Assembly (NCBI GenBank): GCA_032718475.1
Contig: JAUCBJ010001490.1
Span: forward strand, 1 to 64,000
Length of the DNA: 64,000 nt
Reading direction: 5' to 3'
DNA from: Nemertoderma westbladi
Lineage: Eukaryota; Animalia; Xenacoelomorpha
The position numbers and the translations under genes are program-made. Numbering within the stretch: the first letter of the stretch is position 1; each line of letters starts with the position of its first letter. The notes beneath the pieces are model-generated. The model made no database searches and was not told the origin of the DNA. It was given only the letters and a program-made list of their open reading frames with translations. Positions 11,999 through 62,400 of this stretch are shown in pieces.

Positions 11999-12003
11999 AC
12001 AAC

Positions 12004-22593: not shown

Positions 22594-24119
22594 GTTAATA
22601 TTAAACAATCAAATAAACAACAGTAGGCCTATACTGGAACATCGCAGTGTACACGCATGCATGCATATGGATGGAGAGCCCATAAATTATGACAATGTAT
22701 TAAGCCTACAGTATTACGCCATTTCCAAAAATATTTACAATATTACATGTATCGGTTATCGTTCATATGCGTACCTGTGGCAAAAGGAGCAGGTTACAGT
22801 GGCGGTGTTTTCTAACCAAAACAATAAACAAAACTAGATTTTTTAAATAACGGAAATGAGCAGGTTACAGTGGCGGGCTTTTCTTACCAAACAATAAACG
22901 ATAACTCAATAACATACAGTAGGTTACCGTACAGTTTTATTATTGCAATACGGGTACGGATACGGATGGATACAGGTACGGATATTAACTACCCTACAGT
23001 ATAACTCATGAATCAAAACAAATAGGCCTATATTTGGAATCCTTGCAACGCCAGTTTTCTAATGACATTAAAAATCACGACTAATGTGAAGAATAACCAC
23101 GATACGAAGAGTTCGATTCCGCAATAGACCACAAATAAAAAATTCTGACTCCAAGTGGACATCGACGGTGAGCTGCACTACTGGAGTTATCTGTCAAATT
23201 TGTATGTCATTATGACAAAGATTATTAAAAACAAATATGGGAAGTCCGTTCCATCAGAAAATGACACCGAATCATGGGTAATTGCGTATAACAATTTCCA
23301 AATATTATAATTGTTGACCATGTCTTACGCGATATCCTGTAGCCTAGTGATATAAAGGCCTAGGCCTACAGTACTTCAGTACTTGTTACATGTACAGTAC
23401 CGGTACAGTAGTTAGAATTTTGTCCGGTTTGGAGAGGTCAGATCAAATAAATAACACACTACAATACATAATTAACATTATGTTGTAATTTTGGCCGAAA
23501 CGGCCGCCTCATAGGGTAACCATACACAGCTGCATGCAAGTATGTAAAATGTACAACACGTCTAGTACAGCATACAGTAGTAATATGCAAGGCATATAAT
23601 AGGCCCAATAGGGCCTACTGTGTGTAGCCAGTACCCTCCTGCCCTCTGCAATCAGCACTTATAAATTAGCATTTTTATAGAAATGTTGATGATCACCAAG
23701 TAACACACTTCCAGTAATTATTCAGATAGGTTACCGGTACTCTTACCTACAGGAAACAAATACTTTCAGTATAATTGTACCAGTAGTACAGGCATGGCGT
23801 TCTATCAAAGTTCTATATTCCTAGCAAACACAGCAAACATAATAATAATAATGCATTTGCATAGCGCCAAATTAAGAATACGAAAAGTACGCCACATCGC
23901 TTACGTCAGACACAAACGTAAAGTACACGTGTCCTCCGCTTTACCAACTGTTCCGTACTGACTCATCTTAGGTGTTACCGTTTTAATGATTTATTTACTC
24001 ACCCGACGCCGATAACGATCCACCAGTTACTCAACCACTTCCAACCGAGGCTGACTCAGATATTGGTCTTAACGCCCACCCAGATGTCCCAAAATTATTC
24101 CAACTCAAACATTTTGTAT

Positions 24120-41500: not shown

Positions 41501-44492
41501 ACTCCTCACACACAGAAACAACTTTCGGAAACCAGTTGCAGAAACTTGTTGGACTCTTCATACACAGAAACAAGTTTCGGAAACAAGTTGCAGGAACTTG
41601 TTGCTGGACTCTTCACACACAAAAACAAGTTTCAGAAACTTGATGCTGGACTCCTCACACACAGAAACAAGATTCGGAAACAAGTTGCAGAAACGTGTTG
41701 CTGGGCTCCTCACACACAAAACAAGTTTCGGAAACAAGTTGTAGAAACCTGTTGCTGGACTCTTCCACACAGAAACAAGTTGCAGAAATTTGTTTGATTC
41801 CTCGCCACAGAAACAAGTTTCGGAAACAAGTTGCAGCAACTTGTTGCTGGGCTCCTCACACACAAAACAAGTTTCGGAAACAAGTTGTAGAAACTTGTTG
41901 CTGGACTCCTCACCACAGAAACAAGTTTCGGAAACAAGTTGCAGAAACTTGTTGGACTCCTCACACACAGAAACAAGTTGCAGAAACGTGTTGCTGGACT
42001 CCCTCACACACAGAAACAAGTTTCGGAAACAAGTTGCAGAAACTTGTTGGACTCCTCGCCACAGAAAAAAGTTGCAGAAACTTGTTGGACTCCTCACCAC
42101 AGAAACAAGTTTCAGAAACAAGTTGCAGAAACTTATTGGACTCCTCACACACAGAAACAAGTTTCGCAAACAAGTTGCAGGAACTTGTTGGACTCCTCCC
42201 ACACAGAAACAATTTGCAGAAACTTGTTGCTGGACTCCTCACACACAGAAACAAGTTTCGGAAACCAGTTGCAGAAACTTGTTGCTGTTGGACTCCTCAC
42301 ACACAGAAACAATTTGCAGAAACTTGTTGCTGGACTCCTCACACACAGAAACAAGTTTCGGAAACAAGTTGCAGGAACTTGTTGGACTCCTCACACACAG
42401 AAACAATTTGCAGAAACTTGTTGCTGGACTCCTCACACACAGAAACAAGTTTCCGAAACCAGTTGCAGAAACTTGTTGGACTCCTCACACACAGAAACAA
42501 TTTGCAGAAACTTGTTGCTGGACTCCTCACACACAGAAACAAGTTTCGGAAACCAGTTGCAGAAACTTGTTGGACTCTTCATACACAGAAACAAGTTTCG
42601 GAAACAAGTTGCAGGAACTTGTTGGACTCCTCACACACAGAAACAATTTGCAGAAACTTGTTGCTGGACTCCTCACACACAGAAACAACTTTCGGAAACC
42701 AGTTGCAGAAACTTGTTGGACTCTTCATACACAGAAACAAGTTTCGGAAACAAGTTGCAGGAACTTGTAGCTGGACTCTTCACACACAAAAACAAGTTTC
42801 AGAAACTTGATGCTGGGCTCCTCACACACAGAAACAAGTTTCGGAAACAAGTTTCAGAAACTTGTTGCCGGACTCATCACACACAGAAACAAGATTCGGA
42901 AACAAGTTGCAGAAACGTGTTGCTGGGCTCCTCACACACAAAACAAGTTTCGGAAACAAGTTGTAGAAACCTGTTGCTGGACTCTTCCACACAGAAACAA
43001 GTTGCAGAAATTTGTTTGATTCCTCGCCACAGAAACAAGTTTCGGAAACAAGTTGCAGCAACTTGTTGCTGCAACTTGTTGGACTCTTCATACACAGAAA
43101 CAAGTTTCGGAAACAAGTTGCAGGAACTTGTAGGTGGACTCTTCACACACAAAACAAGTTTCGGAAACAAGTTGTAGAAACTTGTTGCTGGACTCCTCAC
43201 CACAGAAACAAGTTTCGGAAACAAGTTGCAGAAACTTGTTGGACTCCTCACACACAGAAACAAGTTGCAGAAACGTGTTGCTGGACTCCCTCACACACAG
43301 AAACAAGTTTCGGAAACAAGTTGCAGAAACTTGTTGGACTCCTCACACACAGAAACAAGTTTCGGAAACAAGTTGCAGAAACTTGTTGGACTCCTTGCCA
43401 CAGAAAAAAGTTGCAGAAACTTGTTGGACTCCTCACCACAGAAACAAGTTTCGGAAACAAGTTGCAGAAACTTATTGGACTCCTCACACACAGAAACAAG
43501 TTGCAGAAACGTGTTGCAGGACTCCCTCACACACAGAAACAAGTTTCGGAAACAAGTTGCAGAAACTTGTTGGACTCCTCACCACAGAAACAAATTGCAG
43601 AAACTTGTTGGACTCCTCGCCATTGAAACAAGTTTCGGAAACAAGTTGCAGAAACTTGTTGGACTCCTCGCCATAGAAACAAGTTTCGGAAACAAGTTGC
43701 AGAAACTTGTTGGACTCCTCACCACAGAAACAAGTTTCGGAAACAAGTTGCAGAAACTTGTTGGACTCCTCACCACAGAAACAAGTTTCGGAAACAAGTT
43801 GCAGAAACTTGTTGGACTCCTCGCCATAGAAACAAGTTTCGGAAACAAGTTGCAGAAACTTGTTGGACTCCTCACACACAGAAACAAGTTTCGGAAACAA
43901 GTTGCAGAAACTTGTTGGACTCCTCACCACAGAAACAAGTTTCGGAAACAAGTTGCAGAGACTTATTGGACTCCTCACACACAGAAACAAGTTTTGGAAA
44001 CAAGTTGCAGAAACGTGTTGCTGGACTCCCTCACACACAGAAACAAGTTGCAGAAACTTGTTGGAATCCTCACCACAGAAACAAGTTTCGGAAACAAGTT
44101 ACAGAAACGTGTTGCTGGACTCCCTCACACACAGAAACAAGTTTCGGAAACAAGTTGTAGAAAGTTGTTGGACTCCTCACCACAGAAACAAGTTTCGGAA
44201 ACAAGTTGCAGAAACGCGTTGCTGGACTCCCTCACACACAGAAACAAGTTTCGGAAACAAGTTGTAGAAACTTGTTGGACTCCTCACCACAGAAACAAGT
44301 TTCGGAAACAAGTTGCAGAAACTTGTTGGACTCCTCACCACAGAAACAAATTTCGGAAACAAGTTGCAGAAACTTGTTGGACTCCTCGCCATAGAAACAA
44401 GTTTCGGAAACAAGTTGCAGAAACTTGTTGGACTCCTCACACACAGAAACAAGTTTCGGAAACAAGTTGCAGAAACTTGTTGGACTCCTCAC
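32583..44492. repeat. Complex satellite (39-55 bp monomers built from 13-bp subunits), left arm
   Basis: Consensus GGACTCCTCACACACAGAAACAAGTTTCGGAAACAAGTTGCAGAAACTTGTT. Contains multi-kb higher-order duplications. Confidence 0.98.
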
Positions 44493-45015
44493 TGTTAGCT
44501 TATTCAATCCCGCCAACACCCCATAAAGTTATAAGCCGATAAGCAATATTGGGAGCCACGAGATTGGGCAATTAACCAACTCGTGCCATCCCAATGAGAG
44601 TGGGAAGGAAGCACACAATAGAGGGTCAGGGGCCAAACCCCTAACCCAGAGAACACAGGTGGAGTGAACGGGAATACTCCACGGGGCGCCAACAAGGGTA
44701 TTAACCAATCAGAGGGGGGGAATGGCATCGATTGAGTAGCAGTAAGGCCACCGTGCAATATAACCAATAACCTATTAATCAGTGATTCAGTTATCTCAGT
44801 GTAGCAGTGCTAGCGTAGGTTGGTAGTCAATTAGTTTAGTTAGGGGATCACGGGACTTTAGTTACCGTATCCCGCCTTGTACACATTATATCTATATCTA
44901 TATCCTATGCCCTATTATTATTATACACCGAACTTCAGAACTCAGTTACTTTATTTCACCCTTATACACGGCGGGGACGCGTGGACTAAATTACCACATC
45001 GGATAAATCGGCACA
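44493..45015 (+). repeat. 5' LTR (523 bp; 19-bp deletion near its 3' end relative to the 3' LTR)
   Basis: TGTTAGCTTATT...ATAAATCGGCACA. Nearly identical to 58895-59436 but lacks GATCCCTCCTGGATCCCGT. Confidence 0.95.
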
Positions 45016-45024
45016 GTAACTAAA
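45016..45024 (+). promoter_or_regulatory. Non-canonical primer-binding site GTAACTAAA
   Basis: Directly follows the LTR with no TGG. Reverse complement of TTTAGTTAC at 44857-44865 in the LTR. Repeated at 48345-48353. Confidence 0.6.
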
Positions 45025-45095
45025 TCCGAGCTGCCGCCCCAGTTAAACTCTAAGAACTACACTGCTAGCTAGCCGAACTCCACCGACCAGACGAG

Positions 45096-47978
45096 ATGAG
45101 TGAATCGGGCGAGACACCGACGCGGACCCCGGACGAAGATCAAACGATCCGCGAGGCCGCGACCAAGCGATACAGGCCCACGACGCCGGAGCCATCGATA
45201 ACGGGCGAACCGGAAGTCCAGAACGAGGAGAGTCTGGAACCCGAAGTCGAGCCAAGAGAGAAAGGGAGCGAGATGGAGGGAGATGGAGACGAGTCGACAC
45301 GGGACGGAGAACGGCGCGCCGATGTCGCCGGCCAGCTACCGGCCGAGGGCGACGAGCGGCCCACCGAAACGGCGACGGTGGGGCCGACGGTGCGACGCCG
45401 GACGCGAAGAGATGGAGGAGAGATCGGTACCGATGTCGCCGGCCAGCTACAGGCCGAGGGCGACGGACGGCCCACCGGAACGGCGACGGTGGAGCCGCCG
45501 GTACGACGTCGAACCCGGAGGGACGGAGGAGAGGTCGGCGACGAGGATGTCGGGGTTTCAGAGCGACTTCGACGGGCCTACAACGCGACCCGGAAGCTGA
45601 TGAAGGACGCCAAGAAGGAAGGGGCGAAGGTAGACGAGGTGAGACTGAGAAAGCGACTAGGTGAGTCGGATAGACACTTTAATTATCTAATACGTTTTGG
45701 GCAGAGAGAACTAGCCGAAACGAGAGCACATGAGATTGCCGGGGAACTGTTTGAACTATGGGAATGTGGGAGTGTGGAACCTAGCGTAGCGTCAGTGTAC
45801 ATAGGGCCATACTTGGTCGATGCCTGGGGAGTAAAACCAGTAGGTTGGAGGGGACTCGAAGGGGGCGAATCCGAGGTTAACCCCGAGGATTCGGCCTCGT
45901 CGGTCGGAGAAAGCTCCGGGAAGCAGGGGAAAGTCAGTAGGTCGGGAAGGCGGGGGAAATCCGTCGTAACCGATAAGTCTGTTACATCCTCCGCGAAAGA
46001 AAGAGCGGTGAGAGAAATAGGTGCCGCATACCGTCTCAGCATGGCAGAGCAAGGTCATAGAGAAATGAAGGAACGGCTAGAGGAAGGGAGAGTGCGGTTA
46101 GAGAGGGAAACGGCATTGCTTAAAGAAACCGGAGAGAGGGCCGAAAGGGCTTTGAAAAGCCTAAGGGAGTATGATGAGATAGAGGAAAGGGAGTGTAGGG
46201 AGCGTGAGGCAAGGGAGGAAAGGGAACGCAAGGAGCGTGAGGCGGAACGCAAGGAGCGTGAGGCGAGAGAGGAAAGGGAACGCAAGGAGCGTGAGGCAAG
46301 GGAGGAAAGGGAACGCAAGGAGCGTGAGGCGGAACGCAAGGAGCGTGAGGCAAGGGAGGAAAAGGAATGCAAAGAGCGCGAAGTGAGACGAAGGGAGAGC
46401 ATTAAGAGTGCTGCAGAGTCGGCCATCAGGGACATCCAGGAGCGTGAGAGGAGAATGGCAGAGACTGAAAAAGAGCGCAAGGAATTAGAGAGACGGCAGA
46501 GTGAGTTTGCGGGAGATAAGATTAGACGGGCACACGAGCTGCAACTGGTGCGAGCGTCGCCGTCTGAAAGCGGGGCCGGCTCGAGTATTTTTAGGGAGCC
46601 GGGGGCCGTAGATACATTTATTAATACCCCACTGACAGGGACCGCACGACAGACTCAAGACTGGTGCGACCGTACGGGCGGGGGGGGGGGGGGGGTAATA
46701 ATAATAATGGTACAGTAGACGTTGTTGATATTGATAATACCGTATGGGACAACACTAATCAAACCTTTATTACAGGGAATGCTTTACATAGTGGTAGTAA
46801 TTTAAATTTAAATCAGAACGCCCCTAGTATTAATGTAGGAAATAATTCTGATATTAATGTAGCTACGCAAAATAATTCAAATAATCAAAATAATAACCCA
46901 GATTCGAATCTACAAAATAATTTAAATAACGCAATTACGCAAAATAATTAGAATAATTTAAATAATGACCTATGCCCGAATTTACAAAATAATTCAGATA
47001 ACGTAGTCGTGCAAAATAATACAAATAACTTTGTTCCAAACGAGCAAAATAATTCCGTTTCCAATATGGGTGCTATTAATGTAAACACGTCGGGCCTACA
47101 TAACCAGGGAGCAGAGGGCCTGGTAGGCCACGTAGTTAGTAGACAGGGAGCAGAGGGCCTGGTAGGCCACGTAGTTAGTAGACAGGGAGCAGAGGGCCTG
47201 GTAGGCCACGTAGTTGGTAGGCAGGGAGTAGAGGGCCTGGTAGGCCATGTAGTTGGTAGGCAGGGAGTAGAGGGCCTGGTAGGCCACGCAATAGCAGAGG
47301 GAGAGGCGGGGGTGAATGGACCCGACCGCAGTAGGGTTGATGTGTCGACTAGAGAGGTATATAATAGCGGGGAGAGAGGTAGCGAAGTTAGACGTAGCGA
47401 GTGGGGGGAGGGGGGGGGGGCTACGAGGACCCCACAACAGAGAGTTAGCGGCGAGAGGGGGGGGGGGGGCAGGGAGTGTCCCACAGCCGTCAGCGGATAA
47501 TGCGAGGGCCGAAATAGGTAAACCGCAACGACCGGCGACGGAAAGTAATAGGGGGATCGCGAGTATCCCCAGCGGCGTGCGACCGAGCAGAGAGAGACAG
47601 GTTGATGTCGCGAGAGGGCGGACGAAGCGTCGAGCCCGATCAGAGGAGGGAAGAAGAACAGTGGGGTTTAACCGGGAGGTCGACGAGAGATCTCGCGAGC
47701 GGGAATATTCCACTGATAGGAGAAGAAAGGAAGACAGTAGTAGAAGTATCGCCGCAAACGATAGAAGAGTGAGAATGGATAGCGAGCCGTCGGTGGTCGA
47801 GATGAGAACGGAGAGTCAGTGGGGTCGGACTCCGGGAGATTGCCGTCGCCCCGGAGGGATGCGACCCGGTGAGATGCATTACACGCCGAGAGAGGGGTAC
47901 ATGATGTACCGGTACGAAGATGAGAACAATAGAGGGTCAGGGGCCAAACCCCTAACCCAGAGAACACAGGTGGAGTGA
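45096..47978 (+). pseudogene. Disrupted N-terminal extension of gag (E/R/K coiled coil, Asn-rich tract, 39-bp repeats)
   Basis: ORFs 45096-46718, 46664-46951, 47009-47500 and 47316-47978 join via frameshifts at poly-G runs and one in-frame TAG (46949-46951). Runs into the internal LTR. Confidence 0.65.
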
Positions 47979-48344
47979 ACGGGAATACTCCACGGGGCGC
48001 CAACAAGGGTATTAACCAATCAGAGGGGGGAATGGCATCGATTGAGTAGCAGTAAGGCCACCGTGCAATATAACCAATAACCTATTAATCAGTGATTCAG
48101 TTATCTCAGTGTAGCAGTGCTAGCGTAGGTTGGTAGTCAATTAGTTTAGTTAGGGGATCACGGGACTTTAGTTACCGTATCCCGCCTTGTACACATTATA
48201 TCTATATCTATATCCTATGCCCTATTATTATTATACACCGAACTTCAGAACTCAGTTACTTTATTTCACCCTTATACACGGCGGGGACGCGTGGACTAAA
48301 TTACCACATCGGATAAATCGGGATCCCTCCTGGATCCCGTCACA
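47926..48344 (+). repeat. Internal, 5'-truncated third LTR copy (LTR positions ~123-542) followed by a second PBS
   Basis: Near-identical to the terminal LTRs from ACAATAGAGGGTCAGG to GATCCCGTCACA, followed by GTAACTAAA. Confidence 0.95.
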
Positions 48345-48507
48345 GTAACTAAAACGTTTTAAAAAAAAAACAGTACGAAGGTGAAGGCAGTAGAGGGGGG
48401 GGGGGGGTCGAAGAGAAACTTTCCGACGGAATACACCTATCGATCGAGACTACGGTAGCCGCGGGGAGGATTATTCGAGAAGAATAAACTTCGATCCCGA
48501 GCAACAC

Positions 48508-51500
48508 ATGCAGACTGTAGGGCATACTGTAGGTCTTACTGCACATACCGTAGGCCACACTGAGAGAGGCAATGTAGGCGATAGGATAGCGCGGACGACG
48601 GAATTAAACCCGGAAGTCGCGGAATACGTACCGGCGAGTAGGCCAGAAGCTGATAGGCCTATACCGGTACCAACACAGCAGTATGACTACAGCATGCAGG
48701 GACATAACATATACCCAGGGGAGGGGGGAATTATTGCGGATAGGTGCATGGGCCCCAACATATTAACATCAACCCCATTACCAAACATACCGGTGGGGGG
48801 GGGACAGGGTGACATTCCCCCATCACAATATCAACAATATACCCCGATGGTAGCAAGAACAACGAGACCCCTGGACGAAAACAGATCGTGTGACACAGAT
48901 ATATGGAGGGGGCCGCTACCCCCAATGACATACCCAAGCCAGAGAAGGTCAAGAAGTAGGACAGACGGAACGCACCAAACAGGGGAAACTATACAGCACC
49001 CGTCGAATCCATTGGAAGCGCAGGCGATAGGGATGGCCACGTTGATCGATGCTTTGAAAACGAGGATCGAGTTACCACCCGTGGAACCATTCAAGTTCGA
49101 CGGGAGTAGGCCGGAAGAATATTTACAATTTCGGCGAATGTATAGTAACGAAATACTAACAAAAAACTTGACGCAGGCGGAGTGCCTAAAGTATCTACAA
49201 GTGTACACGGGAGGCCCAGCATACGATATCGTGAGGCAATATCAGGGAATAGAGGGCGGCTTCACGACAGCATGGCGGGCACTGGATAGGGAATACGGGC
49301 ACCCGGCCAAGATCATCAGGCAGACGCTGAGAGGCATAACATCGGGTGGCCTACAGGATAACCCCGTTAGCATCAAGGCGTTTGCTAACAAAGTCGAAAA
49401 GGCGCTAATCGTGCTGAAGACGCTAGACGCGCCGTACGAGCTCAACGCGTCCAACAACATCACCACGATAGCGCAGGCACTACCGAACTGGCTGCGCAAC
49501 AAGTGGAGGAAGATCGCTTTCTCCACTCGAGACAAGAAGGGTGCGGATGCGGAACCGGGTTTAGAAGAAATGTCAAACTTCTTAAATTACGAGGCTGAAC
49601 TAATAACGGACCCAGTCTATAGTGAAGATAGCCTGGGAAAGGGACCAAAGACAGATCACTACAGGCCGAAACCAGAGCACAATACATCAAACGCATTGCC
49701 GAGACTCAGGCAATCATTGCCATACGCAGCGACCCAGGGGACTGCAAGTCCACAGGCAAACGAAGACAAGACTACATCATGGAACGGACAGGGGAACAAT
49801 AACAACATGAATAAACATAACCCCAGTACGTCCAGTAGGCCAAATCCAGTCAATAAGAATAGTAGGGACTTTGGTACGAATATAACTGCGATACGCAATG
49901 CATTGTATAAAGAGGGCTACGACCCAAAGAGCAAATGCCAGTTACACGCAAATGCACTTCATAAAACCATGAACTGCAGGTACTGGCAGGCGCTACCGAG
50001 GCAAGACCAGATAGATTACGCGTCGAGCAATAAAATCTGCTCGCGATGTGTGAAGAGTGGACACAAGGCCAGGGAATGCCAAGAGAAGCCGGTCAAGTTT
50101 GGCCAAAGGAGAGGCCAAACGATGGCAACGAGCACGGTAGGGGCGAAGAAGAGAGGCACGGTGTTACTTGGAGTAGTACCGGTGCGAGTGATCGGGGAAG
50201 GCAATCGATCAGTAACAACACTAATGCTGGTTGATAGTGGAGCTGCCTTCACATTAGTCGAGGAATGGGTAGCCGAAGAAATAGGATTGAGAACAAGGCC
50301 AAGCAAAATGGCGGTAACAACCATCTCTAGCAAAGATGAGATCCTAGAGATGAGGACAGGACGGTGCGCAATTGCAGCAGTGGCACCAGGATGCGATTAT
50401 GGGGCAACCATCGACCCCATCCAAGTAATAGAGTCAATTAACATCAATGCCAGGCGGCCAACCAACATCGAGGTCGAGCAATACAAATTCCTGGACGACA
50501 TTGACTTCTCGATCCCAGACGTGGACGTTAGGAAGGTATCCATCATAGTAGGAATGGACTGCCCGACGGCCCACGAAAGAATGCAAACGGTCTTCGGCGA
50601 AGACAAGCAGAGCAACCCGGTGGCCATATTAACACCATTCGGGTGGACGCTGAGTGGTCCAATAAAGAGCAAGATACCATTTAGGATGTCGGAGACATCA
50701 GGATGCATGTTCGCGGGAACAATGCAGGAAATGGGCGATGAGGGAGCAGAGGAGCAGCTTAAAAGACTCCTCAGGCAAGATTTCGAGGGACTGAAAGAAA
50801 CCGGGGTTGGGACCTCGGTGGAAGACAAGCAGGCTCTACAAAGCGTGGAGGGATCAATGACATGCGATGAGGGACGGTATACTATAGGAATGGTATGGAA
50901 ACTACCGAAGATACCGTTACCCGACAATAGGGGGATGGTACTCACGAGACTCCGCAAACTGAAACAAACACTAAAACGGAGCCCCGAGAAGAATGAGTAC
51001 ATCCACAGGACGATTAAGAAGTACGTCGAGAAAGGATGGGCCGTGGAGTTACCGGTCGACGAGCCGAACACGGATAGAACATATTACCTGCCACTGCACG
51101 TGGCTTTAGATCCAAAGAAAGGTAAACTAAGGATGGTAGTCGACGCATCGGCGAAGACCGACGGAAAATGCTTAAATGATTACCTGTTGGAAGGCCCAAA
51201 TATTTACAATTCGGGCATAGAGGTGTTACTTAGATTTCGAAATGGGAAACACGCCTTCACGTGTGACATAGAAGGCATGTTCAACCAGGTCTGTGTAACG
51301 GAAGAAGACAGTGACAGTCAACGCTTCTTATGGTATAACGGCGAAGAAGAACCGCCGGTAATACCAGCGTATAAGATGGTAGTACAAAACATGGGGGCCA
51401 AGTCGTCCTCATTTACGACGACTATGGCAGTGAGAGACACGGTAAAGGGCAAGGAAGATAGATACAGCAGTAGGGCCGTCGATATGATCCGACGCGGCTT

Positions 51501-54141
51501 CTACGTAGACGACGGTATGGAGTCTGGAAATACGGTTGAGGAGATACTGGAAACAGGGCGCGAGGTTCGCGACATCCTGAAAGGATCCGGCTTCAACCTG
51601 ACCAAATTCCAATCCAGTTCAGAAGAATTTATCAAGGCAATAGAGGACAAGAAACCAGAATCGACCATGGACAACCCTACAACAGCCAAAGGACAGGACA
51701 TGGCGAATAAGAGAATACAATCTCAGCAAAAGGCGTTGGGAATCGTGTGGGATAGAGGAACAGACGAACTGAAGTATCAGCTGAGCCAGGAGGGCGCAGA
51801 CACCCATACGAAGAGGGGTTATGTATCGTATATAGCAAGGATATACGATCCCCTAGGCCTAGCATCCCCATTACTAGTCACGGGGAAACAGATACTCAAG
51901 AGAGTATATAAATTGAAGGATGAGTGGGACGTAGAGGTACCAGAGGACATCAAGAAACAGTGGAGCAAATGGACAGGAGACTTGGAGAGGATGGGAACAT
52001 ACAACATGCCGCGAGTGTATTTTCCGGACGGGAACATGACGAATCTGGATCTACTTATGTTCTCCGACGCGTCGTTAGAGGCATACGGAGCGGCACTCTA
52101 TTTGGTACAACGAGGGGGGGCTCACAAGCCCAGACTAGCCTTTAGCAAAGCTAAGTCAATGCCGCCAGATTCAGCATCTGTTCCCAAGTTAGAATTGACA
52201 GCTGCGAGACTAGGAGTTAGAGCCACAGCCTACCTAGTGGATACAATTCCCAACATAGTGGAGACACACTACTGGACGGACTCCATGGTAGTGCTTGGTT
52301 GGCTACACAACGAAAAGACGAGATACCCGATATTCATCGCGAATAGAGTGGACGAAATAAGGGCGAGCACAGAACTGGAAAGGTGGCACTACTGCCCAAC
52401 GGACGAGAACCCAGCGGACTTGCTGTCGAGGGGCGTGGAACGCCACACTTTCCTGAAGAAGGAAGCATTGTGGCAACATGGGCCACAATTTCTGAGCGTT
52501 AAAGAGGCCTGGCCGCCAATGAGAAAGGTGGAGCCGGGCTCAGAAGTAGTGTCAGAGGGAGAAGAGGGAAACTCAGAGGGAGAAGAGATATACTCCCAGA
52601 TGGTGAGGGAGATTAGGGACGTGCAACCAAAGCAAGAACTACGCGATAACCCGACGGACAAACTCCTCAGCTACAGTTCTAGTTGGTACAAGACCAAGAA
52701 ATTAGTGGCGTACTGGAGAGCTTTCGGGAATTTCCTCGCGGGAGTTAATAAGGAGAAGAAAACCAGGGAAACCATAGATCTGGAAGGAGCGGCCAAGGCA
52801 ATAATCCGCTATGAACAACGAAAGAACTACGGCGACGAGGTGGAACGCGTCGGTAACCAACAGCACCTCCGACGGGGCAGCGAGTTGATTACGCTGTCGC
52901 CACAACTCAACGACGATGGGATTCTAGTAATGAATTCTAGGGTGGGATATAACAACAGCATAGTCGTGCCACCGAAACCCATCATCATTCCCACAGGATC
53001 ACCAATAGTCCACCAGATCATATGGGAATCCCACAAATCGATACTGCATGGGGGCACCAACCGAACCCTCACCGAGATAAGGAGGACCTTTTGGGTCAAA
53101 CAACTAAGGAAGAAGGTTAAAGCGGTAGTGGGGCAGTGCCAGACCTGCCGACGGGCGAAGAAGGAGCGAGCCATACAGGAGATGGCGCCACTACCGGCGA
53201 GTAGGGTAAGACAGCACGACCCGCCATTTACGCATTGTGGTGTGGACATGTTCGGGCCGATAAAGATCAAGGTGATGCGACACACGGAGAAACGCTACGG
53301 TATTATCTTCGTATGCAACAATACACGGGCGGTAGGGATAGAACTCGCCCAAGATGCAACCGCATCAGCATTCATTAACGCCTTAGAAAGGTTTAGGGAC
53401 CGCAAAGGTGGGACGATCGCAGTGATATACAGCGACAACGGCACCAACTTTGTGGGCGCAGAGAGTGAGATGGCAGAGGCCTTGGACATCTTGGAGGGAG
53501 AAGAAGTCAGGGCAGCCATGAGGAGACGACAAGTAAAGTGGGAGAGAAGGACGCCGTATGCACCACATACACTAGGATGCGTCGAGAGACTGGTGGGCAG
53601 TTCAAAGCGTCTAATGACGAAGTTAATGAACACCCACATGGTCACTGAGGACGTCTTACGGACAGTACTTGCGAAGTGCGAGGGGATCATTAATAGCAGA
53701 CCGCTATACCCGGAGAATGATGACCCTGAGTCATTAGACGTGTTGACGCCTAGCCATTTTCTGATGGAAAGGCCAGCGACCATCGATATGCAGGGTGTAG
53801 ATCCAGATGATATACATTCCCGCCAGAGTTGGAAAGTCGCTAAAGCAATAAGCGCAGAGTACTGGAGGAGGTGGGTAGAAGAATACCTACCCACGCTCCA
53901 TAAGCGAAGCAAGTGGAGGAAACCGAACAGGGAGTTAAAAGAGGGAGATCTCGTAATCGTCACGGATGATACTATCATCAACAACCAATGGCGGTTGGCG
54001 AGAGTTGTAGGCACCTACTCCGACGAGGACGGAAGAGTCCGATCGGTAGAAGTGCGAATAGGTGGAAAGATAGGTGCGAAGGACAGAAAAACTTACAGGA
54101 GAGCTGTAGGGAAATGCTGTCTTCTAGAAGGGGCACCTTAA
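48508..54141 (+). CDS. BEL/Pao Gag-Pol polyprotein (1877 aa, intact)
   Basis: DUF1759-like gag (PFKFDGSRPEEYLQF); zinc knuckles (CQLH..H...C, CSRCVKSGHKAREC); protease LVDSGA; RT RMVVDAS / DIEGMFNQV / FYVDD; Pao RNase H FSDASLEAYG, PKLEL, WTDS, ENPAD; integrase HHCC, VDMFGP, SDNGTNF, GCVERL; DUF5641-like WVEEYLPTL. Confidence 0.97.
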   Translation: MQTVGHTVGLTAHTVGHTERGNVGDRIARTTELNPEVAEYVPASRPEADRPIPVPTQQYDYSMQGHNIYPGEGGIIADRCMGPNILTSTPLPNIPVGGGQGDIPPSQYQQYTPMVARTTRPLDENRSCDTDIWRGPLPPMTYPSQRRSRSRTDGTHQTGETIQHPSNPLEAQAIGMATLIDALKTRIELPPVEPFKFDGSRPEEYLQFRRMYSNEILTKNLTQAECLKYLQVYTGGPAYDIVRQYQGIEGGFTTAWRALDREYGHPAKIIRQTLRGITSGGLQDNPVSIKAFANKVEKALIVLKTLDAPYELNASNNITTIAQALPNWLRNKWRKIAFSTRDKKGADAEPGLEEMSNFLNYEAELITDPVYSEDSLGKGPKTDHYRPKPEHNTSNALPRLRQSLPYAATQGTASPQANEDKTTSWNGQGNNNNMNKHNPSTSSRPNPVNKNSRDFGTNITAIRNALYKEGYDPKSKCQLHANALHKTMNCRYWQALPRQDQIDYASSNKICSRCVKSGHKARECQEKPVKFGQRRGQTMATSTVGAKKRGTVLLGVVPVRVIGEGNRSVTTLMLVDSGAAFTLVEEWVAEEIGLRTRPSKMAVTTISSKDEILEMRTGRCAIAAVAPGCDYGATIDPIQVIESININARRPTNIEVEQYKFLDDIDFSIPDVDVRKVSIIVGMDCPTAHERMQTVFGEDKQSNPVAILTPFGWTLSGPIKSKIPFRMSETSGCMFAGTMQEMGDEGAEEQLKRLLRQDFEGLKETGVGTSVEDKQALQSVEGSMTCDEGRYTIGMVWKLPKIPLPDNRGMVLTRLRKLKQTLKRSPEKNEYIHRTIKKYVEKGWAVELPVDEPNTDRTYYLPLHVALDPKKGKLRMVVDASAKTDGKCLNDYLLEGPNIYNSGIEVLLRFRNGKHAFTCDIEGMFNQVCVTEEDSDSQRFLWYNGEEEPPVIPAYKMVVQNMGAKSSSFTTTMAVRDTVKGKEDRYSSRAVDMIRRGFYVDDGMESGNTVEEILETGREVRDILKGSGFNLTKFQSSSEEFIKAIEDKKPESTMDNPTTAKGQDMANKRIQSQQKALGIVWDRGTDELKYQLSQEGADTHTKRGYVSYIARIYDPLGLASPLLVTGKQILKRVYKLKDEWDVEVPEDIKKQWSKWTGDLERMGTYNMPRVYFPDGNMTNLDLLMFSDASLEAYGAALYLVQRGGAHKPRLAFSKAKSMPPDSASVPKLELTAARLGVRATAYLVDTIPNIVETHYWTDSMVVLGWLHNEKTRYPIFIANRVDEIRASTELERWHYCPTDENPADLLSRGVERHTFLKKEALWQHGPQFLSVKEAWPPMRKVEPGSEVVSEGEEGNSEGEEIYSQMVREIRDVQPKQELRDNPTDKLLSYSSSWYKTKKLVAYWRAFGNFLAGVNKEKKTRETIDLEGAAKAIIRYEQRKNYGDEVERVGNQQHLRRGSELITLSPQLNDDGILVMNSRVGYNNSIVVPPKPIIIPTGSPIVHQIIWESHKSILHGGTNRTLTEIRRTFWVKQLRKKVKAVVGQCQTCRRAKKERAIQEMAPLPASRVRQHDPPFTHCGVDMFGPIKIKVMRHTEKRYGIIFVCNNTRAVGIELAQDATASAFINALERFRDRKGGTIAVIYSDNGTNFVGAESEMAEALDILEGEEVRAAMRRRQVKWERRTPYAPHTLGCVERLVGSSKRLMTKLMNTHMVTEDVLRTVLAKCEGIINSRPLYPENDDPESLDVLTPSHFLMERPATIDMQGVDPDDIHSRQSWKVAKAISAEYWRRWVEEYLPTLHKRSKWRKPNRELKEGDLVIVTDDTIINNQWRLARVVGTYSDEDGRVRSVEVRIGGKIGAKDRKTYRRAVGKCCLLEGAP

Positions 54142-54249
54142 ATTGGAGTTAGAGTGGAGTTTAGTCGTCCAAGTTTTGGACTGAGGGGGGTGGGATTGAG
54201 GGCAAGACGCCCTTCCCACACAAATAAAAATAAAATAAAATAAAAATAA

Positions 54250-55160
54250 TAGTTAGTTAGTTAGTAGGTACGTAGTACCTAGAGTTAGTTAGTTAGTAGG
54301 TACGTAGTACCTAGAGTTAGTTAGTTAGTAGGTACGTAGTACCTAGAGTTAGTTAGTTAGTAGGTACGTAGTACCTAGAGTTAGTTAGTTAGTAGGTACG
54401 TAGTACCTAGAGTTAGTTAGTTAGTTAGAGGGTACGTAGTACCGTTAGTTAGAGTTAGAGTTAGAGGGTACGTAGTACCGTTAGTTAGAGTTAGAGTTAG
54501 AGGGTACGTAGTACCGATAGTTAGAGAGTTAGAGGGTACGTAGTACCGTTAGTTAGAGTTAGAGTTAGAGGGTACGTAGTACCGATAGTTAGAGAGTTAG
54601 AGGGTACGTAGTACCGTTAGTTAGAGTTGAGTTAGAGGGTACGTAGTACCGATAGTTAGAGAGTTAGAGGGTACGTAGTACCAATAGTTAGTTAGAGTTA
54701 GAGGGTACGTAGTACCGATAGTTAGAGAGTTAGTAGGTACGTAGTACCTAGTTAGAGTTAGAGTTAGAGGGTACGTAGTACCGATAGTTAGAGAGTTAGA
54801 GGGTACGTAGTACCGTTAGTTAGAGTTAGAGTTAGAGGGTACGTAGTACCGATAGTTAGAGAGTTAGAGGGTACGTAGTACCAATAGTTAGTTAGAGTTA
54901 GAGGGTACGTAGTACCAATAGTTAGAGAGTTAGTAGGTACGTAGTACCTAGTTAGAGTTAGAGTTAGAGGGTACGTAGTACCGATAGTTAGAGAGTTAGT
55001 AGGTACGTAGTACCTAGTTAGAGTTAGAGTTAGAGGGTACGTAGTACCAATAGTTAGTTAGAGTTAGTAGGTACGTAGTACCTAGTTAGAGTTAGAGTTA
55101 GTAGGTACGTGGTACCTAGTTAGAGTTAGAGTTAGGGGGTACGTAGTACCATTAGTTAGA
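54250..55160 (+). repeat. Tandem array of ~27 hairpin-bearing 32-36 bp units
   Basis: Core GGTAC-GTA-GTACC separated by (TTAG/TTAGAG)n linkers. Confidence 0.95.
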
Positions 55161-55657
55161 GAGAGAGAGTGAGAGATAAAAGGGGTAAATAGGATATAGA
55201 TATTAGTTAGCAGTAAGTAGAGTTAGTAGCGAGAGGGGGGCATATGAGTACAGCTGGATAAATCGTGTGGCCACACGACGCATACTGCTGTACTGCATGG
55301 GCCCACAGAGTAGGCCAGAATATGGATCAGAGAATAGAATAAACCCATAGGCAGTAGTAGGTAGTAGGACAGTAGAATCAAAGCAAACAAACAAATAAAT
55401 AGAATAGGGCTAAAATCGTAAAATAGTGGCAACACAAGGAAAGTCGTTCTAGAACATAATAAAAGTAACGGACGGAAATTGTAAATTAGGCTGATTTACT
55501 AGCTCCGAAATTAATTAGGTTAAATTTAGCTTGAAAGGCGCAATTAAGTAGAAAGTAGGCCATTATCGAACTGTACGAAACATCTTAAATACTTCACTCA
55601 TCTGTATTGCGCCTTGGTAAGGCACCACCCTGCAGGTGAGCGAGTGTAGTGTTCGGA

Positions 55658-55993
55658 ATGGCGAGTAAGTTGATCAGGAAGAGGAAGGCGGAGTCAGGAG
55701 GAAAAGAAATACTGGTGGATTTCACCGAAAGACACCCGGAAGAGAAGACGAGAGGATACTACGAGAAGTTGGAAAGGGGTCACGCGGCACGAGCGCTGCA
55801 GGACCACTTCCGGGAGATGCACGAGCAGCGGCTGGTCGGGACCTACGGAACGCCGTCGCTGGACAACGCGATCTTCCAACACTTCCACTACGTGGTGAAA
55901 GGGGACGAGGCGAAGTTCGGGATTCCGAAGTATCCAAGGGAATCGCCGAGGAAGGACTGGAAAAGATTCATAGAGTCCGTCAACAGAGGATGA
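55658..55993 (+). CDS. Accessory ORF segment A (unknown; in frame with the exonuclease ORF)
   Basis: Purine-rich open frame with element-like codon usage. Ends at TGA one codon before the next ATG in the same frame. Confidence 0.5.
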   Translation: MASKLIRKRKAESGGKEILVDFTERHPEEKTRGYYEKLERGHAARALQDHFREMHEQRLVGTYGTPSLDNAIFQHFHYVVKGDEAKFGIPKYPRESPRKDWKRFIESVNRG

Positions 55994-55996
55994 TAT

Positions 55997-56902
55997 ATGA
56001 TCCTAGATGACGAGGGAACCGTGGAAGACGAAGCGGGTTCGAGACGAGGAACGGCAGGGTCGGCCAGGACCATACTCCTACATTTGGCCGCGCCAAATGG
56101 GGACATCTTCTTATTCGACCTAGGGACGTATGGGAAGAAGGACGGGCCGAAATTAGACCGATTACCGAAAGCGGTACAAGTCTTAGTAAGAGAGAAGTCG
56201 ACGACGAAAGTGGGATTGGCGATTCGCGAGGACGCGGAGAGGATCATCGGTCCGGACGCCACCAACCTCCTGGATATGCAGAAAGTCTTTATGGCTATGG
56301 CGGCACCGGATGGATTGGGGGTGGTCGAGAATACAGGCCAATGCGGGGCGGTGGCGATGGGCCAATTATTGGGGCTCGTATGCCACAAACCGATGGACTG
56401 GGGAAAGTTTAGGGAAGAATACGGGGCAGAACTAGCGAACTCGCTGAAGTGGGGAGCGAGACCGGGAAAGCAGGAGGTATATCAGTTTCGCAGAGGAGCG
56501 ATAAAGGTATATCAGAAGCGATATATCCTGCAGGAGGACTGGATGATGATAAGTTTGCTTAACTTATTCATGACCGTAGTTATCGAAAGGGAACCAGGGG
56601 CATTTCTGTTATCGGGATCACCCCTAAGCTACAGGAGAGCCTTTAAAGTGGCCTTTGACGGTCTGGTAGACCACCCGGGGCTGAAGGGCGAGTCGGTGTA
56701 CTACAACAGCCGACATCTGGTAGACGGGGAGACAGATACACCGTATCAGAGATGGGAGCAGCTAGAGGCGGACAGACGAGAAGCAAAGCGACTGGAAGAA
56801 GTCGCTAGACGGGAGAGGATAGAAGCAGAGGAGAGGGAAGAGGAGGCCAGGGCACAGAGTTACGGCTTCGAGGAACAGGCGGGCCTAGACGAACTTCATT
56901 GA
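55997..56902 (+). CDS. DEDDy (RNase D/WRN/Mut-7-like) 3'-5' exonuclease domain
   Basis: ExoI ILDDEG, LLHLA..IFLFD, LPKAVQVLVREKSTTKVGLAIREDA (ExoII), NLLDMQ, and ExoIII-like QKRYILQED. Recognised by motif pattern only. Confidence 0.75.
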   Translation: MILDDEGTVEDEAGSRRGTAGSARTILLHLAAPNGDIFLFDLGTYGKKDGPKLDRLPKAVQVLVREKSTTKVGLAIREDAERIIGPDATNLLDMQKVFMAMAAPDGLGVVENTGQCGAVAMGQLLGLVCHKPMDWGKFREEYGAELANSLKWGARPGKQEVYQFRRGAIKVYQKRYILQEDWMMISLLNLFMTVVIEREPGAFLLSGSPLSYRRAFKVAFDGLVDHPGLKGESVYYNSRHLVDGETDTPYQRWEQLEADRREAKRLEEVARRERIEAEEREEEARAQSYGFEEQAGLDELH

Positions 56903-58192
56903 ACTTCGTCAGGGAGTTCGGGGGAGTCTCTAGGGCGAGAATTGGGATGGACGGTGGGATCGCCGAAAAAGTCGACGTCGGGGTTGCAAACGATGCCCAT
57001 ACCAGCGGGCGCCGAGGGCGACCAACCGCCAAGGAAGTTAAGGGAGCTAGAGGGATGGAGAGCTACGGGCGAGAGTCAAGGCGGGAAGGGACATAGTGGA
57101 TCCATCGGGATACCGGGATTGGAGACACTACCAGAAGAGGAGGATGGCGACGACGAGTTCGGAGAGATGCCGCCCATCGAGAGGATAGGCCACTCGGACA
57201 CGGACTGGGTTGGCGGAAGGGTGGTGACAGCCAGTGGGGCGAGGGCCTTCTGGAACAGATCCGGCAAGCGGACCTGGGTGCACGAGGAGCCGGCGATGGA
57301 TTTCGCGGGGAGCACCATCAGGTTGGGCGAGCAACCGGGGACGGCACCACGGATAGTATTCGGGGAGACGATGCCCGAGAGGGGCGGAGAGATCGACGTA
57401 AACAGGGAGACCAACGTAGAGAAGTTCGCCTACCAGCGACTCCACAGACCGCGGAGATCGCTTGGGACGAAAGACGAGGTGGGACGGGAGACATTGGTAC
57501 TCGGCTGCGACTACTGCGGGAGACAGACCCATCGGGAAAGCAGCTGCCTATACCGGTTCCAAAAGGGAACCTTCTGTCTCTACTGCAGAGAACCAAGTCA
57601 CAGGATGGGGGCGTGTCCACGGTTGCATAACCGATGTCCAAAGTGCCACTTTCGGGGACACTACGGACGCGAGTGCGACTGGATGAACGACGAGGAGAAG
57701 TTCACAAGGTTCGAGGAGTGGGCCGACGTCGGGGCCATGACGCGCCAGCGCATGAAGGCCCAAGAGTTCAAGTGGGGTTTCTTCCTCATAAACCAGGAGA
57801 CCCACATGGAAATCATAAAGCGAAGGTTACCGTTTACCTATCAAGAGGTAGCAACGGCTGCGTCGTTCGCCGGAGTTATGAACACGCAACGGTACCTGGA
57901 CAGGTGGACACCAGAGAACCGGAGGGAGTTTAGGGATTTCTTGGCGGAACACGTACCAAAGGCAATGAAAATGATCCTATGGGACGCCACGCGAGGGAGA
58001 CAACCAGGCCATTCTGAGGGGCCACCGGCGAAGCGGTATCGGGCATTAATAACACCAGCGCCCAAGGAGCCGACGACCGGGATCAGCAAGGAAGTGGCGG
58101 CGAAGGTCCGGAAGCAGAAAGCGGATGATGCCAGAGGAACGGTGATAACCAAGAAACGGGCCAGGGAAGAGGACGTGAGGAGGAACAGATAA
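56903..58192 (+). CDS. Accessory ORF segment C with three CCHC zinc knuckles
   Basis: CDYCGRQTHRESSC, CLYCREPSHRMGAC and CPKCHFRGHYGREC (CX2CX4HX4C). The frame is open from 56903, in frame with the exonuclease ORF. Confidence 0.75.
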   Translation, partial: TSSGSSGESLGRELGWTVGSPKKSTSGLQTMPIPAGAEGDQPPRKLRELEGWRATGESQGGKGHSGSIGIPGLETLPEEEDGDDEFGEMPPIERIGHSDTDWVGGRVVTASGARAFWNRSGKRTWVHEEPAMDFAGSTIRLGEQPGTAPRIVFGETMPERGGEIDVNRETNVEKFAYQRLHRPRRSLGTKDEVGRETLVLGCDYCGRQTHRESSCLYRFQKGTFCLYCREPSHRMGACPRLHNRCPKCHFRGHYGRECDWMNDEEKFTRFEEWADVGAMTRQRMKAQEFKWGFFLINQETHMEIIKRRLPFTYQEVATAASFAGVMNTQRYLDRWTPENRREFRDFLAEHVPKAMKMILWDATRGRQPGHSEGPPAKRYRALITPAPKEPTTGISKEVAAKVRKQKADDARGTVITKKRAREEDVRRNR

Positions 58193-58885: not shown

Positions 58886-58894
58886 GGGGGGGAG
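58886..58894 (+). promoter_or_regulatory. Polypurine tract
   Basis: GGGGGGGAG immediately before the TG of the 3' LTR. Confidence 0.85.
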
Positions 58895-59436
58895 TGTTAG
58901 CTTATTCAATCCCGCCAACACCCCATAAAGTTATAAGCCGATAAGCAATATTGGGAGCCACGAGATTGGGCAATTAACCAACTCGTGCCATCCCAATGAG
59001 AGTGGGAAGGAAGCACACAATAGAGGGTCAGGGGCCAAACCCCTAACCCAGAGAACACAGGTGGAGTGAACGGGAATACTCCACGGGGCGCCAACAAGGG
59101 TATTAACCAATCAGAGGGGGGGAATGGCATCGATTGAGTAGCAGTAAGGCCGCCGTGCAATATAACCAATAACCTATTAATCAGTGATTCAGTTATCTCA
59201 GTGTAGCAGTGCTAGCGTAGGTTGGTAGTCAATTAGTTTAGTTAGGGGATCACGGGACTTTAGTTACCGTATCCCGCCTTGTACACATTATATCTATATC
59301 TATATCCTATGCCCTATTATTATTATACACCGAACTTCAGAACTCAGTTACTTTATTTCACCCTTATACACGGCGGGGACGCGTGGACTAAATTACCACA
59401 TCGGATAAATCGGGATCCCTCCTGGATCCCGTCACA
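58895..59436 (+). repeat. 3' LTR (542 bp)
   Basis: TGTTAGC...GATCCCGTCACA followed by the TSD CTCAC. Confidence 0.97.
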
Positions 59437-62400
59437 CTCACCACAGAAACAAGTTTCGGAAACAAGTTGCAGAGACTTATTGGACTCCTCACACACAGAA
59501 ACAAGTTTTGGAAACAAGTTGCAGAAACGTGTTGCTGGGCTCCTCACACACAAAACAAGTTTCGGAAACAAGTTGTAGAAACCTGTTGCTGGACTTTTCC
59601 ACACAGAAACAAGTTGCAGAACTTTGTTTGATTCCTCGCCACAGAAACAAGTTTCGGAAACAAGTTGCAGCAACTTGTTGCTGGGCTCCTCACACACAAA
59701 ACAAGTTTCGGAAACAAGTTGTAGAAACTTGTTGCTGGACTCCTCACCACAGAAACAAGTTTCGGAAACAAGTTGCAGAAACTTGTTGGACTCCTCACAC
59801 ACAGAAACAAGTTGCAGAAACGTGTTGCTGGACTCCCTCACACACAGAAACAAGTTTCGGAAACAAGTTGCAGAAACTTGTTGGACTCCTCGCCACAGAA
59901 AAAAGTTGCAGAAACTTGTTGGACTCCTCACCACAGAAACAAGTTTCGGAAACAAGTTGCAGAAACTTATTGGACTCCTCACACACAGAAACAAGTTGCA
60001 GAAACGTGTTGCAGGACTCCCTCACACACAGAAACAAGTTTCGGAAACAAGTTGCAGAAACTTGTTGGACTCCTCACCACAGAAACTTGTTGGACTCCTC
60101 GCCATTGAAACAAGTTTCGGAAACAAGTTGCAGAAACTTGTTGGACTCCTCACCATAGAAACAAGTTTCGGAAACAAGTTGCAGAAACTTGTTGTTCTCC
60201 TCACCACAGAAACAAGTTTCGGAAACAAGTTGCAGAAACTTGTTGGACTCCTCGCCATAGAAACAAGTTTCGGAAACAAGTTGCAGAAACTTGTTGGACT
60301 CCTCGCCATAGAAACAAGTTTCGGAAACAAGTTGCAGAAACTTGTTGGACTCCTCACACACAGAAACAAGTTTCGGAAACAAGTTGCAGAAATTTGTTGG
60401 ACTCCTCACCACAGAAACAAGTTTCGGAAACAAGTTGCAGAAACTTGTTGGACTCCTCACACACAGAAACAAGTTTCGGAAACAAGTTGCAGAAACTTGT
60501 TGGACTCCTCACACACAGAAACAAGTTTCGGAAACAAGTTGCAGAAACTTGTTGGACTCCTCACACACAGAAAGAAGTTTTGGAAACAAGTTGCAAAAAC
60601 GTGTTGCTGGACTCCCTCACACACAGAAACAAGTTTCGGTAACAAGTTGCAGAAACTTGTTGGACTCCTCACACACAGAAACAAGTTGCAGAAACTTGTT
60701 GGACTCCTCACCACAGAAACAAATTTCGGAAACAAGTTGCAGAAACTTGTTGGACTCCTCACACACAGAAACAAGTTTCGGAAACAAGTTGCAGAAACTT
60801 GTTGGACTCCTCACCACAGAAACAAGTTTCGGAAACAAGTTGCAGAGACTTATTGGACTCCTCACACACAGAAACAAGTTTTGGAAACAAGTTGCAGAAA
60901 CGTGTTGCTGGGCTCCTCACACACAAAACAAGTTTCGGAAACAAGTTGTAGAAACCTGTTGCTGGACTCTTCCACACAGAAACAAGTTGCAGAAATTTGT
61001 TTGATTCCTCGCCACAGAAACAAGTTTCGGAAACAAGTTGCAGCAACTTGTTGCTGGGCTCCTCACACACAAAACAAGTTTCGGAAACAAGTTGTAGAAA
61101 CTTGTTGCTGGACTACTCACCACAGAAACAAATTTCGGAAACAAGTTGCAGAAACTTGTTGGACTCCTCACACACAGAAACAAGTTGCAGAAACGTGTTG
61201 CTGGACTCCCTCACACACAGAAACAAGTTTCGGAAACAAGTTGCAGAAACTTGTTGGACTCCTCGCCACAGAAAAAAGTTGCAGAAACTTGTTGGACTCC
61301 TCACCACAGAAACAAGTTTCGGAAACAAGTTGCAGAAACTTATTGGACTCCTCACACACAGAAACAAGTTGCAGAAACGTGTTGCAGGACTCCCTCACAC
61401 ACAGAAACAAGTTTCGGAAACAAGTTGCAGAAACTTGTTGGACTCCTCACCACAGAAACAAATTGCAGAAACTTGTTGGACTCCTCGCCATTGAAACAAG
61501 TTTCGGAAACAAGTTGCAGAAACTTGTTGGACTCCTCGCCATAGAAACAAGTTTCGGAAACAAGTTGCAGAAACTTGTTGGACTCCTCACCACAGAAACA
61601 AGTTTCGGAAACAAGTTGCAGAAACTTGTTGGACTCCTCGCCATAGAAACAAGTTTCGGAAACAAGTTGCAGAAACTTGTTGGACTCCTCGCCATAGAAA
61701 CAAGTTTCGGAAACAAGTTGCAGAAACTTGTTGGACTCCTCACACACAGAAACAAGTTTCGGAAACAAGTTGCAGAAACTTGTTGGACTCCTCACACACA
61801 GAAAGAAGTTTTGGAAACAAGTTGCAAAAACGTGTTGCTGGACTCCCTCACACACAGAAACAAGTTTCGGTAACAAGTTGCAGAAACTTGTTGGACTCCT
61901 CACACACAGAAACAAGTTGCAGAAACTTGTTGGACTCCTCACACACAGAAATAAGTTTCGGAAACAAGTTGCAGAAACTTGTTGGACTCCTCGCCATAGA
62001 AACAAGTTTCGGAAACAAGTTGCAGAATCTTGTTGTACTCCTCACCACAGAAACAAGTTTCGGAAACAAGTTGCAGAAACGTGTTGCTGGACTCCCTCAC
62101 ACACAGAAACAAGTTTCGGAAACAAGTTGTAGAAAGTTGTTGGACTCCTCACCACAGAAACAAGTTTCGGAAACAAGTTGCAGAAACTTGTTGGACTCCT
62201 CACCACAGAAACAAGTTTCGGAAACAAGTTGCAGAGACTTATTGGACTCCTCACACACAGAAACAAGTTTTGGAAACAAGTTGCAGAAACGTGTTGCTGG
62301 GCTCCTCACACACAAAACAAGTTTCGGAAACAAGTTGTAGAAACCTGTTGCTGGACTCTTCCACACAGAAACAAGTTGCAGAAATTTGTTTGATTCCTCG

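Follow-up and report, generated by a model that had tools for sequence, protein, structure and literature searches.

The first 64,000 nucleotides of contig JAUCBJ010001490.1 from the assembly of the xenacoelomorph Nemertoderma westbladi (GCA_032718475.1), which we call the window, contain a 14.9-kb retrotransposon of the BEL/Pao type on the forward strand, bounded by long terminal repeats (LTRs). Between its pol gene, which lies 1.5 kb upstream, and the polypurine tract (PPT) with the 3' LTR, i.e. in the position of env, the element carries a third open reading frame, ORF3 (Table 1), in which a predicted exonuclease of the DEDDy class is combined with three CCHC zinc knuckles. Comparison with related elements shows that BEL/Pao elements have inherited ORF3 as an accessory gene for a long time and that it is maintained by purifying selection, although broken in the window copy.

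The assignment of the carrier to BEL/Pao, made earlier in a sequence-only reading of this stretch, agrees with the presence of TG...CA LTRs, a short target-site duplication and a PPT, with the Pfam matches of the pol frame to Peptidase_A17 (E 1.7e-38), DUF5641 and DUF1759, and with the Pao-type order protease, reverse transcriptase (RT), RNase H and integrase. The same reading saw no env-like transmembrane protein after pol, and indeed ORF3 has no transmembrane segment (its highest 19-residue hydropathy is 1.3) and no env family is found in it by Pfam, so that neither a membrane anchor nor homology to fusion proteins is apparent. The charged helix that it placed behind the exonuclease is also predicted by us.

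Table 1. Features of the BEL/Pao element, in positions of the window
Feature	Positions	Strand	Remarks
Left target-site duplication	44488..44492	+	5 bp; same 5 bp again at 59437-59441
5' LTR	44493..45015	+	523 bp, TG...CA
Primer-site position	45016..45024	+	does not begin with TGG; complements LTR positions 365-373 over 9 bases
gag-like 5' region	45069..47925	+	several frames; breaks near long G runs and in-frame stop
Internal copy of LTR 3' part	47926..48344	+	99.5% identity over 420 bp, then the same 9 primer-site bases
gag C-terminal/pol frame	48394..54141	+	1915 codons, open throughout, BEL/Pao type, TAA end
Tandem array	54249..55159	+	period ~32, 27 copies; small inverted repeat per unit, could form hairpin
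ORF3	55658..58192	+	ATG to TAA, 844 codons, two in-frame TGA
Predicted DEDDy/DnaQ-like exonuclease domain	55826..56713	+	residues ~57-352; profile, model, motif alignment
First in-frame TGA	55991..55993	+	codon 112, within exonuclease domain
Predicted long charged helix	56741..56872	+	residues 362-405; not conserved across family
Second in-frame TGA	56900..56902	+	codon 415, in low-complexity linker
Three CCHC zinc knuckles	57506..57676	+	residues 617-673; starts 617, 640, 660; spacing CX2CX4HX4C
Helical cap	57689..57952	+	residues ~678-765; conserved, predicted to fold with knuckles as one module
PPT	58886..58894	+	
3' LTR	58895..59436	+	542 bp

Predicted exonuclease domain and zinc knuckles

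Pfam and phmmer reported nothing significant for the ORF3 protein alone, and none of 18 intact ORF3s had a Pfam exonuclease match, yet the DnaQ fold is recovered both by a profile of the family and by structure prediction. A full HMMER search returned 74 relatives, nearly all of them matched via the knuckle region; 11 also match the N-terminal 370 residues (E<0.01 within that small set), and in one of 40 relatives scanned Pfam recognizes DNA_pol_A_exo1 (6e-5). A 20-member family profile, window protein included, retrieves EXD2 (E 6e-10), TbRND (3e-7) and WRN (6e-7), and also Egalitarian, with TbRND matched in both its exonuclease and a knuckle; the window protein itself scores 86 bits (E 1e-28) against a profile built without it. 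The AlphaFold model of ORF3 has a predicted local distance difference test (pLDDT) score of 56.5 overall and of ~80-89 across much of the nuclease core, and its top Foldseek matches are TbRND, Egalitarian, Nibbler and EXD2. According to VIA, residues 60-352 superimpose on Nibbler EXO with Z 13.9 (root-mean-square deviation 3.5, 204 aligned), many DEDDy relatives being tied; Nibbler/Mut-7, EXD2, WRN-exo, NrnC, Egalitarian and EXD1 exhibit the same DnaQ-like fold at Z 12-14 and identities of 9-17%, and these ties at the top prevent the choice of any one parent family. By alignment, the active-site set comprises D117/E119 of ExoI, D192 of ExoII, and Y289 with E293 of ExoIII, where E293 replaces the usual D, a pattern found in 5 of 90 family domains. 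The N-terminal part of ORF3 is thus predicted to be a DnaQ-like DEDDy fold with four acids and the ExoIII tyrosine present, in keeping with the 3'-5' exonuclease motif set originally noticed in the sequence.

The three CCHC knuckles noticed after the exonuclease were likewise recovered. In the family they carry the signature H-x4-C-x2-L-H-x2-C-x2-C-x2-R-G-H, and their Cys and His residues are the most conserved positions, in part by construction for the loci that were found by the motif. Modeled together, knuckles and cap form one confident module (pLDDT 80, predicted template modeling score 0.76). VIA, run on 48,161 chains, found nothing above Z 2.5 for this module, and Foldseek nothing below E 0.4. 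The knuckle module of TbRND comes up as a weak Foldseek match (E 0.42), and the likeness is one of layout. The modeled module looks new, bearing in mind that blank fold searches do not prove a new fold. It is also unlike the knuckles of BEL gag: when its profile was run on 133 gag-pol proteins of BEL elements, the best score was 9.8 bits.

Distribution among BEL/Pao elements

A motif over knuckles 2 and 3 is found in 61 of 78 family proteins; in its DNA form it has a single occurrence in the window, and none of 100 shuffles contains it. Scanning metagenomes with it yielded 120 loci (from 26 of 64 parts scanned), and scanning viral contigs none; a word-index protein search gave no protein with one query and five close ones with another. 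The 80 loci that came with flanking DNA constitute the analysed set; the accession prefixes of 67 of their contigs belong to a single group, and the loci may therefore stem from few host species. A profile made before these loci were fetched, and holding none of them, detects the exonuclease in 56 of the 80. Where the upstream DNA extends over 3.5 kb or more (40 loci), pol is present in 35, the exonuclease in 37 (according to a refined profile that includes these loci) and both in 33. Sister elements carry the same cassette. Four of the 40 have the exonuclease without pol, and in L047 and L059 pol and knuckles are present with the exonuclease undetected. All 21 long pol frames scanned (from 42 loci with pol) are of the BEL/Pao type. 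L071, with neither pol nor exonuclease, was rejected as a chance match of the motif.

Two kinds of unusual ORF3 were seen along the way, both without an informative Pfam match: those with the knuckle module and no detectable exonuclease (L047:3341-6529, L059:6880-9648 and L061:2-2425), and those 1300-1600 residues in length that are considerably extended at the N-terminus (L005, L051, L043 and L015).

Co-inheritance and selection

Tree distances of the exonuclease follow those of pol, with Spearman coefficients of 0.87 for RT (23 elements) and 0.79 for integrase (30 elements) and Mantel p 0.001; because the loci are related to one another, these p-values overstate the support. The exonuclease tree was built with FastTree, and the window's row is among those with long-branch warnings. 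In the RT tree, the window element falls among other BEL elements (support 95-98). This grouping may reflect several acquisitions of ORF3 within BEL/Pao, and a single clade of all carriers is not rejected by the approximately unbiased test (p 0.27, 14 vs 18 rows).

Selection was assessed in 17 pairs picked from the tree, by pairwise averages, in which selection on individual sites would go unnoticed. The ratio of nonsynonymous to synonymous substitution rates (dN/dS) is 0.04-0.50 for the exonuclease in the 16 unsaturated pairs and 0.03-0.39 for the knuckle module in 8 of 11 pairs, well under 1 and indicative of purifying selection. Within the window's own family, third codon positions account for 49 of the 69 variable places listed (p 2e-10), the 69 being the 40 rows listed in each of two listings minus out-of-frame rows and the stop row. 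The first TGA of ORF3 is absent from the other copies sampled, as all contig depth over the site differs in four runs from two samples; one diverged contig is open across the second, whose position is not among the variable rows listed (40 of 67). The sequence-only reading could have failed on the absence of a DnaQ fold or on a cassette that is missing or drifting in sister elements; neither is the case, because the fold, the sister cassette and purifying selection were all found.

From the two stops and the broken gag of the window copy one might suspect a functionless, drifting passenger, either a gene captured from the host or a duplicate of the knuckle array of gag; the rotifer ORF3s discussed below showed neutral variation within the genome (PMC5408684). 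Such a passenger is already contradicted by the low dN/dS, the third-position bias, the co-divergence with pol and the poor fit of the knuckle profile to BEL gag-pol proteins, and we consider it very improbable.

Versions lacking catalytic acids

The full set of catalytic acids is retained in 44 of 90 family domains, 33 lack the ExoI pair (a few of these may be alignment slips), 12 are partial and one differs elsewhere; after removal of near-copies (n=71) the corresponding numbers are 33, 27, 10 and 1. One clade of 23 rows (support 97), grouped in the RT tree too, has lost the acids throughout and is referred to as the dead clade. Its elements hold intact pol frames, and dN/dS in six pairs from this clade is 0.04-0.47. 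Judging from these sequences, catalysis appears to be dispensable in part of the family, and since dead versions persist under selection, binding rather than cutting is likely to be the core job of the protein.

The roles that require catalysis, such as the proofreader of RT or the trimming enzyme that had been envisaged, are weakened by these findings. An exonuclease acting on DNA, to proofread for RT or to polish the ends of complementary DNA (cDNA) before integration, would be in line with the fold, since WRN, EXD2 and the proofreading domains of polymerases are matched as well, and a fusion behind integrase would put the enzyme in the particle. However, the ExoI acids are missing in 33 of 90 domains, the dead clade combines intact pol with selected ORF3s, and in L047 and L059 pol and knuckles persist where no exonuclease is detected. 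We therefore regard this role as improbable.

Possible readthrough at the pol stop

In 11 of the 40 relatives ORF3 lies in frame behind the pol stop with no further stop; in the other 29, as in the window, ORF3 is a frame apart that begins with an ATG of its own. UGA-C is found at the pol stop of 10 of the 11 in-frame loci and of 5 of the 29 others (Fisher p 3e-5, the loci not being independent). Frame 0 is kept in 10 of 13 UGA loci of the dead clade despite differing linker lengths. A UCGG motif ~20 bases past the stop occurs in nearly all of these 13 loci and in 1 of 24 others, and in ~8 of the 11 in-frame loci it bulges out of a predicted hairpin. The in-frame loci on the forward strand, with their pol stops, are L007:1234, L029:6877, L031:6684, L065:6736, L068:5645, L069:6538 and L076:1309; L021, L034, L066 and L080 are on the reverse strand. 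From these sequence features, the in-frame UGA-C loci are candidates for programmed readthrough that would probably produce a Gag-Pol-ORF3 fusion. The literature (PMC2194720, PMC8310308) offers two parallels, namely the pol/env arrangement of soybean SIRE1 and the UGA-C readthrough of Sindbis virus; the common points are a third ORF in frame behind a single stop and, in the relatives of the window element, UGA followed by C with a 3' stem-loop. The likeness is limited to 11 of 40 relatives; the window differs, and Tca2 is a counter-example.

A CAG/GTGAG junction at 55630-55642, ~20 bases ahead of the ORF3 start, reads like a sequence that could serve as a splice site. The array of 27 small inverted repeats that separates pol from ORF3 could be repeated RNA hairpins.

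Primer site

No TGG-type site complementary to a tRNA was found next to the 5' LTR of the window element, and no tRNA gene was found in the 64-kb window. Instead, positions 45016-45024 are complementary to 44857-44865 (LTR 365-373), in a match that ends at the LTR boundary, was examined after being seen, and has a chance of 0.003-0.01; its 9-base duplex amounts to -10.7 kcal/mol. The duplex is not formed upon folding of 44780-45060 (z +1.47). This complementarity weakly suggests that the window element may prime itself from its own LTR. The sisters do have tRNA-type sites: TGGCGCC, which we take to correspond to tRNA-Lys, is found in 19 of 80 oriented loci, most others not reaching that region.

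It could then be imagined that, in the window lineage, ORF3 makes the primer by trimming element-derived RNA back to its duplex with the non-tRNA primer site. The LTR complementarity with its energy, and the catalytic acids kept in this lineage, would fit such a function. On the other hand, sisters with the same ORF3 have TGGCGCC-type sites, local folding misses the duplex, and the match was picked post hoc, which together make the proposal quite improbable. As a general role of the family, primer trimming, put forward in the sequence-only reading, is not supported, because 19 of 80 sister loci show TGGCGCC-type sites.

A sense-strand stretch resembling CCCCACGTTGGG, which is similar to the 3' arm of a tRNA, presumably tRNA-Lys, was seen just upstream of the PPT in L040, L060, L065, L066, L068, L069 and about ten more loci. 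In most of the CCCCACGTTGGG-bearing loci the primer site matches for only ~11 bases. By their sequence these loci possibly have a split primer-binding site, an arrangement known from Ty3.

Build and age of the window copy

The element is inserted in a satellite array. Its LTRs differ by one mismatch in 519 bases, the 5' LTR being 19 bp shorter near its own 3' end, and the copy is young yet defective, given this near-identity together with the broken gag and the internal LTR copy. A Pfam scan of the gag-like region gave no match. The LTR piece inside gag, with the 9 primer-site bases behind it, resembles a mis-jumped strong-stop product.

Elsewhere in the window there are a 31-bp satellite (1-12000), a threonine-rich repeat frame (16027-19851, reverse strand) and the ~51-bp satellite that hosts the element (32600-44490 and 59437-64000). 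Two long, intron-free, host-like frames on the reverse strand, 12004-13668 and 20140-22608, may encode a myotubularin-related protein and a ZGRF1-type N-terminus, respectively.

Discussion

We propose, with a probability of roughly 0.4, that ORF3 encodes an accessory DEDDy-plus-knuckle protein that binds the element's own RNA. The triple-knuckle module would grip single-stranded RNA and present its 3' end to the nuclease pocket, where the exonuclease fold would hold or trim it; the likely substrate is the RNA of the element inside a ribonucleoprotein or particle. Binding of RNA by the knuckles is inferred by analogy with TbRND, whose knuckles provide binding: they raise both RNA binding and cleavage (PMC7797062). 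As the clade without catalytic acids is still under selection, this binding would be the indispensable step. Action on the element's own RNA is suggested by the strict co-inheritance and by the probable readthrough fusion in some relatives; the fold matches include Egalitarian structures in complex with I-factor RNA. In the window's family, trimming is likely because the active-site acids are kept, and the protein would be the product of a separate transcript.

Several observations weigh against this proposal. The exonuclease evolves at roughly double the rate of pol (mean tree distances 3.9 and 2.25). The clue from fusion does not apply to the window ORF3, which lies 1.5 kb behind a TAA and in another frame. 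Even the in-frame relatives may use their own start, since conservation of the linker peptide fades after ~20 residues and the nuclease is preceded by a Met-Phe start that is itself conserved. For about half of the 11 loci the predicted hairpins have weak z-scores, several being no stabler than shuffles, and in Tca2, which has UGA plus structure, readthrough was not seen (PMC2194720). Finally, the closest folds, Nibbler, TbRND and EXD1, act on small RNAs and would fit a counter-defence equally well.

Such a counter-defence protein, the leading alternative, would bind precursors of PIWI-interacting RNAs (piRNAs) or small interfering RNAs (siRNAs) and shorten them before 2'-O-methylation, the dead versions sequestering their ends or competing with host trimmers. 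Besides the small-RNA factors at the top of the fold matches, it would account for the separate frame with its own ATG in 29 of 40 relatives and the window, as expected of a trans-acting protein, and for an accessory gene that diverges faster than pol. Overexpression of TbRND lowers guide RNAs (PMC7797062). Thousands of window-family contigs per run fit a successful family, though they give no copy number. However, purifying selection alone was seen (in pairwise averages), and the in-frame UGA-C layout seen in 11 of 40 loci suggests a product made at low level and bound to the particle, so that we consider counter-defence somewhat unlikely. It is tempting to extend this idea to an ancient and widespread anti-silencing system, in which a knuckle-guided exonuclease would act on piRNA/siRNA ends, dead decoys would have arisen repeatedly, one branch would have gained a UGA-readthrough fusion, and the window lineage would perhaps prime itself; this we judge unlikely. 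Explanations other than those considered here share a small remainder of probability.

The DEDDy third gene itself is already known from rotifers, and what appears new here is the BEL/Pao carrier and the triple-knuckle module. DEDDy third ORFs have been published for the bdelloid LTR elements Juno and Vesta and for Athena/Terminons (PMC5408684); the ORF3s of Juno and Vesta described there resemble ours in following pol, replacing env and having no membrane segment. Compared by description, they differ in the carrier and in the triple-knuckle module with its helical cap, the five mentions of "knuckle" in that paper concerning gag or pol; purifying selection between elements, the dead clade and the probable readthrough link are further features seen here. 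Our earlier remark that DEDDy ORFs are also reported from nematode elements finds no backing in that text, in which "nematode" does not occur (PMC5408684). TbRND is likewise a DEDDy exonuclease followed by a C-terminal CCHC knuckle array (PMC7797062), but it is a cellular enzyme with four knuckles and a preference for uridine, whereas ORF3 has three, together with a long disordered linker and a helical cap. Among the matches listed in a search of openly accessible literature, none describes a BEL/Pao element with an exonuclease ORF; the layout does have this cellular precedent. The dead clade, in turn, has a parallel in Egalitarian, an inactive relative of the exonucleases, and another in EXD1, which is described as inactive in PMC5408684.

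Many BEL/Pao lineages carry ORF3 as an old gene that is inherited together with pol, is under selection and escapes Pfam. To our knowledge, no function has been shown for the non-env third genes of animal LTR elements, and selection was not apparent in the published rotifer case. The short UGA-C cassette is suited to testing readthrough from pol into ORF3, and the natural pairs of active and dead ORF3s allow one to ask if retrotransposons encode an RNA-end processing factor or an anti-piRNA factor of their own.

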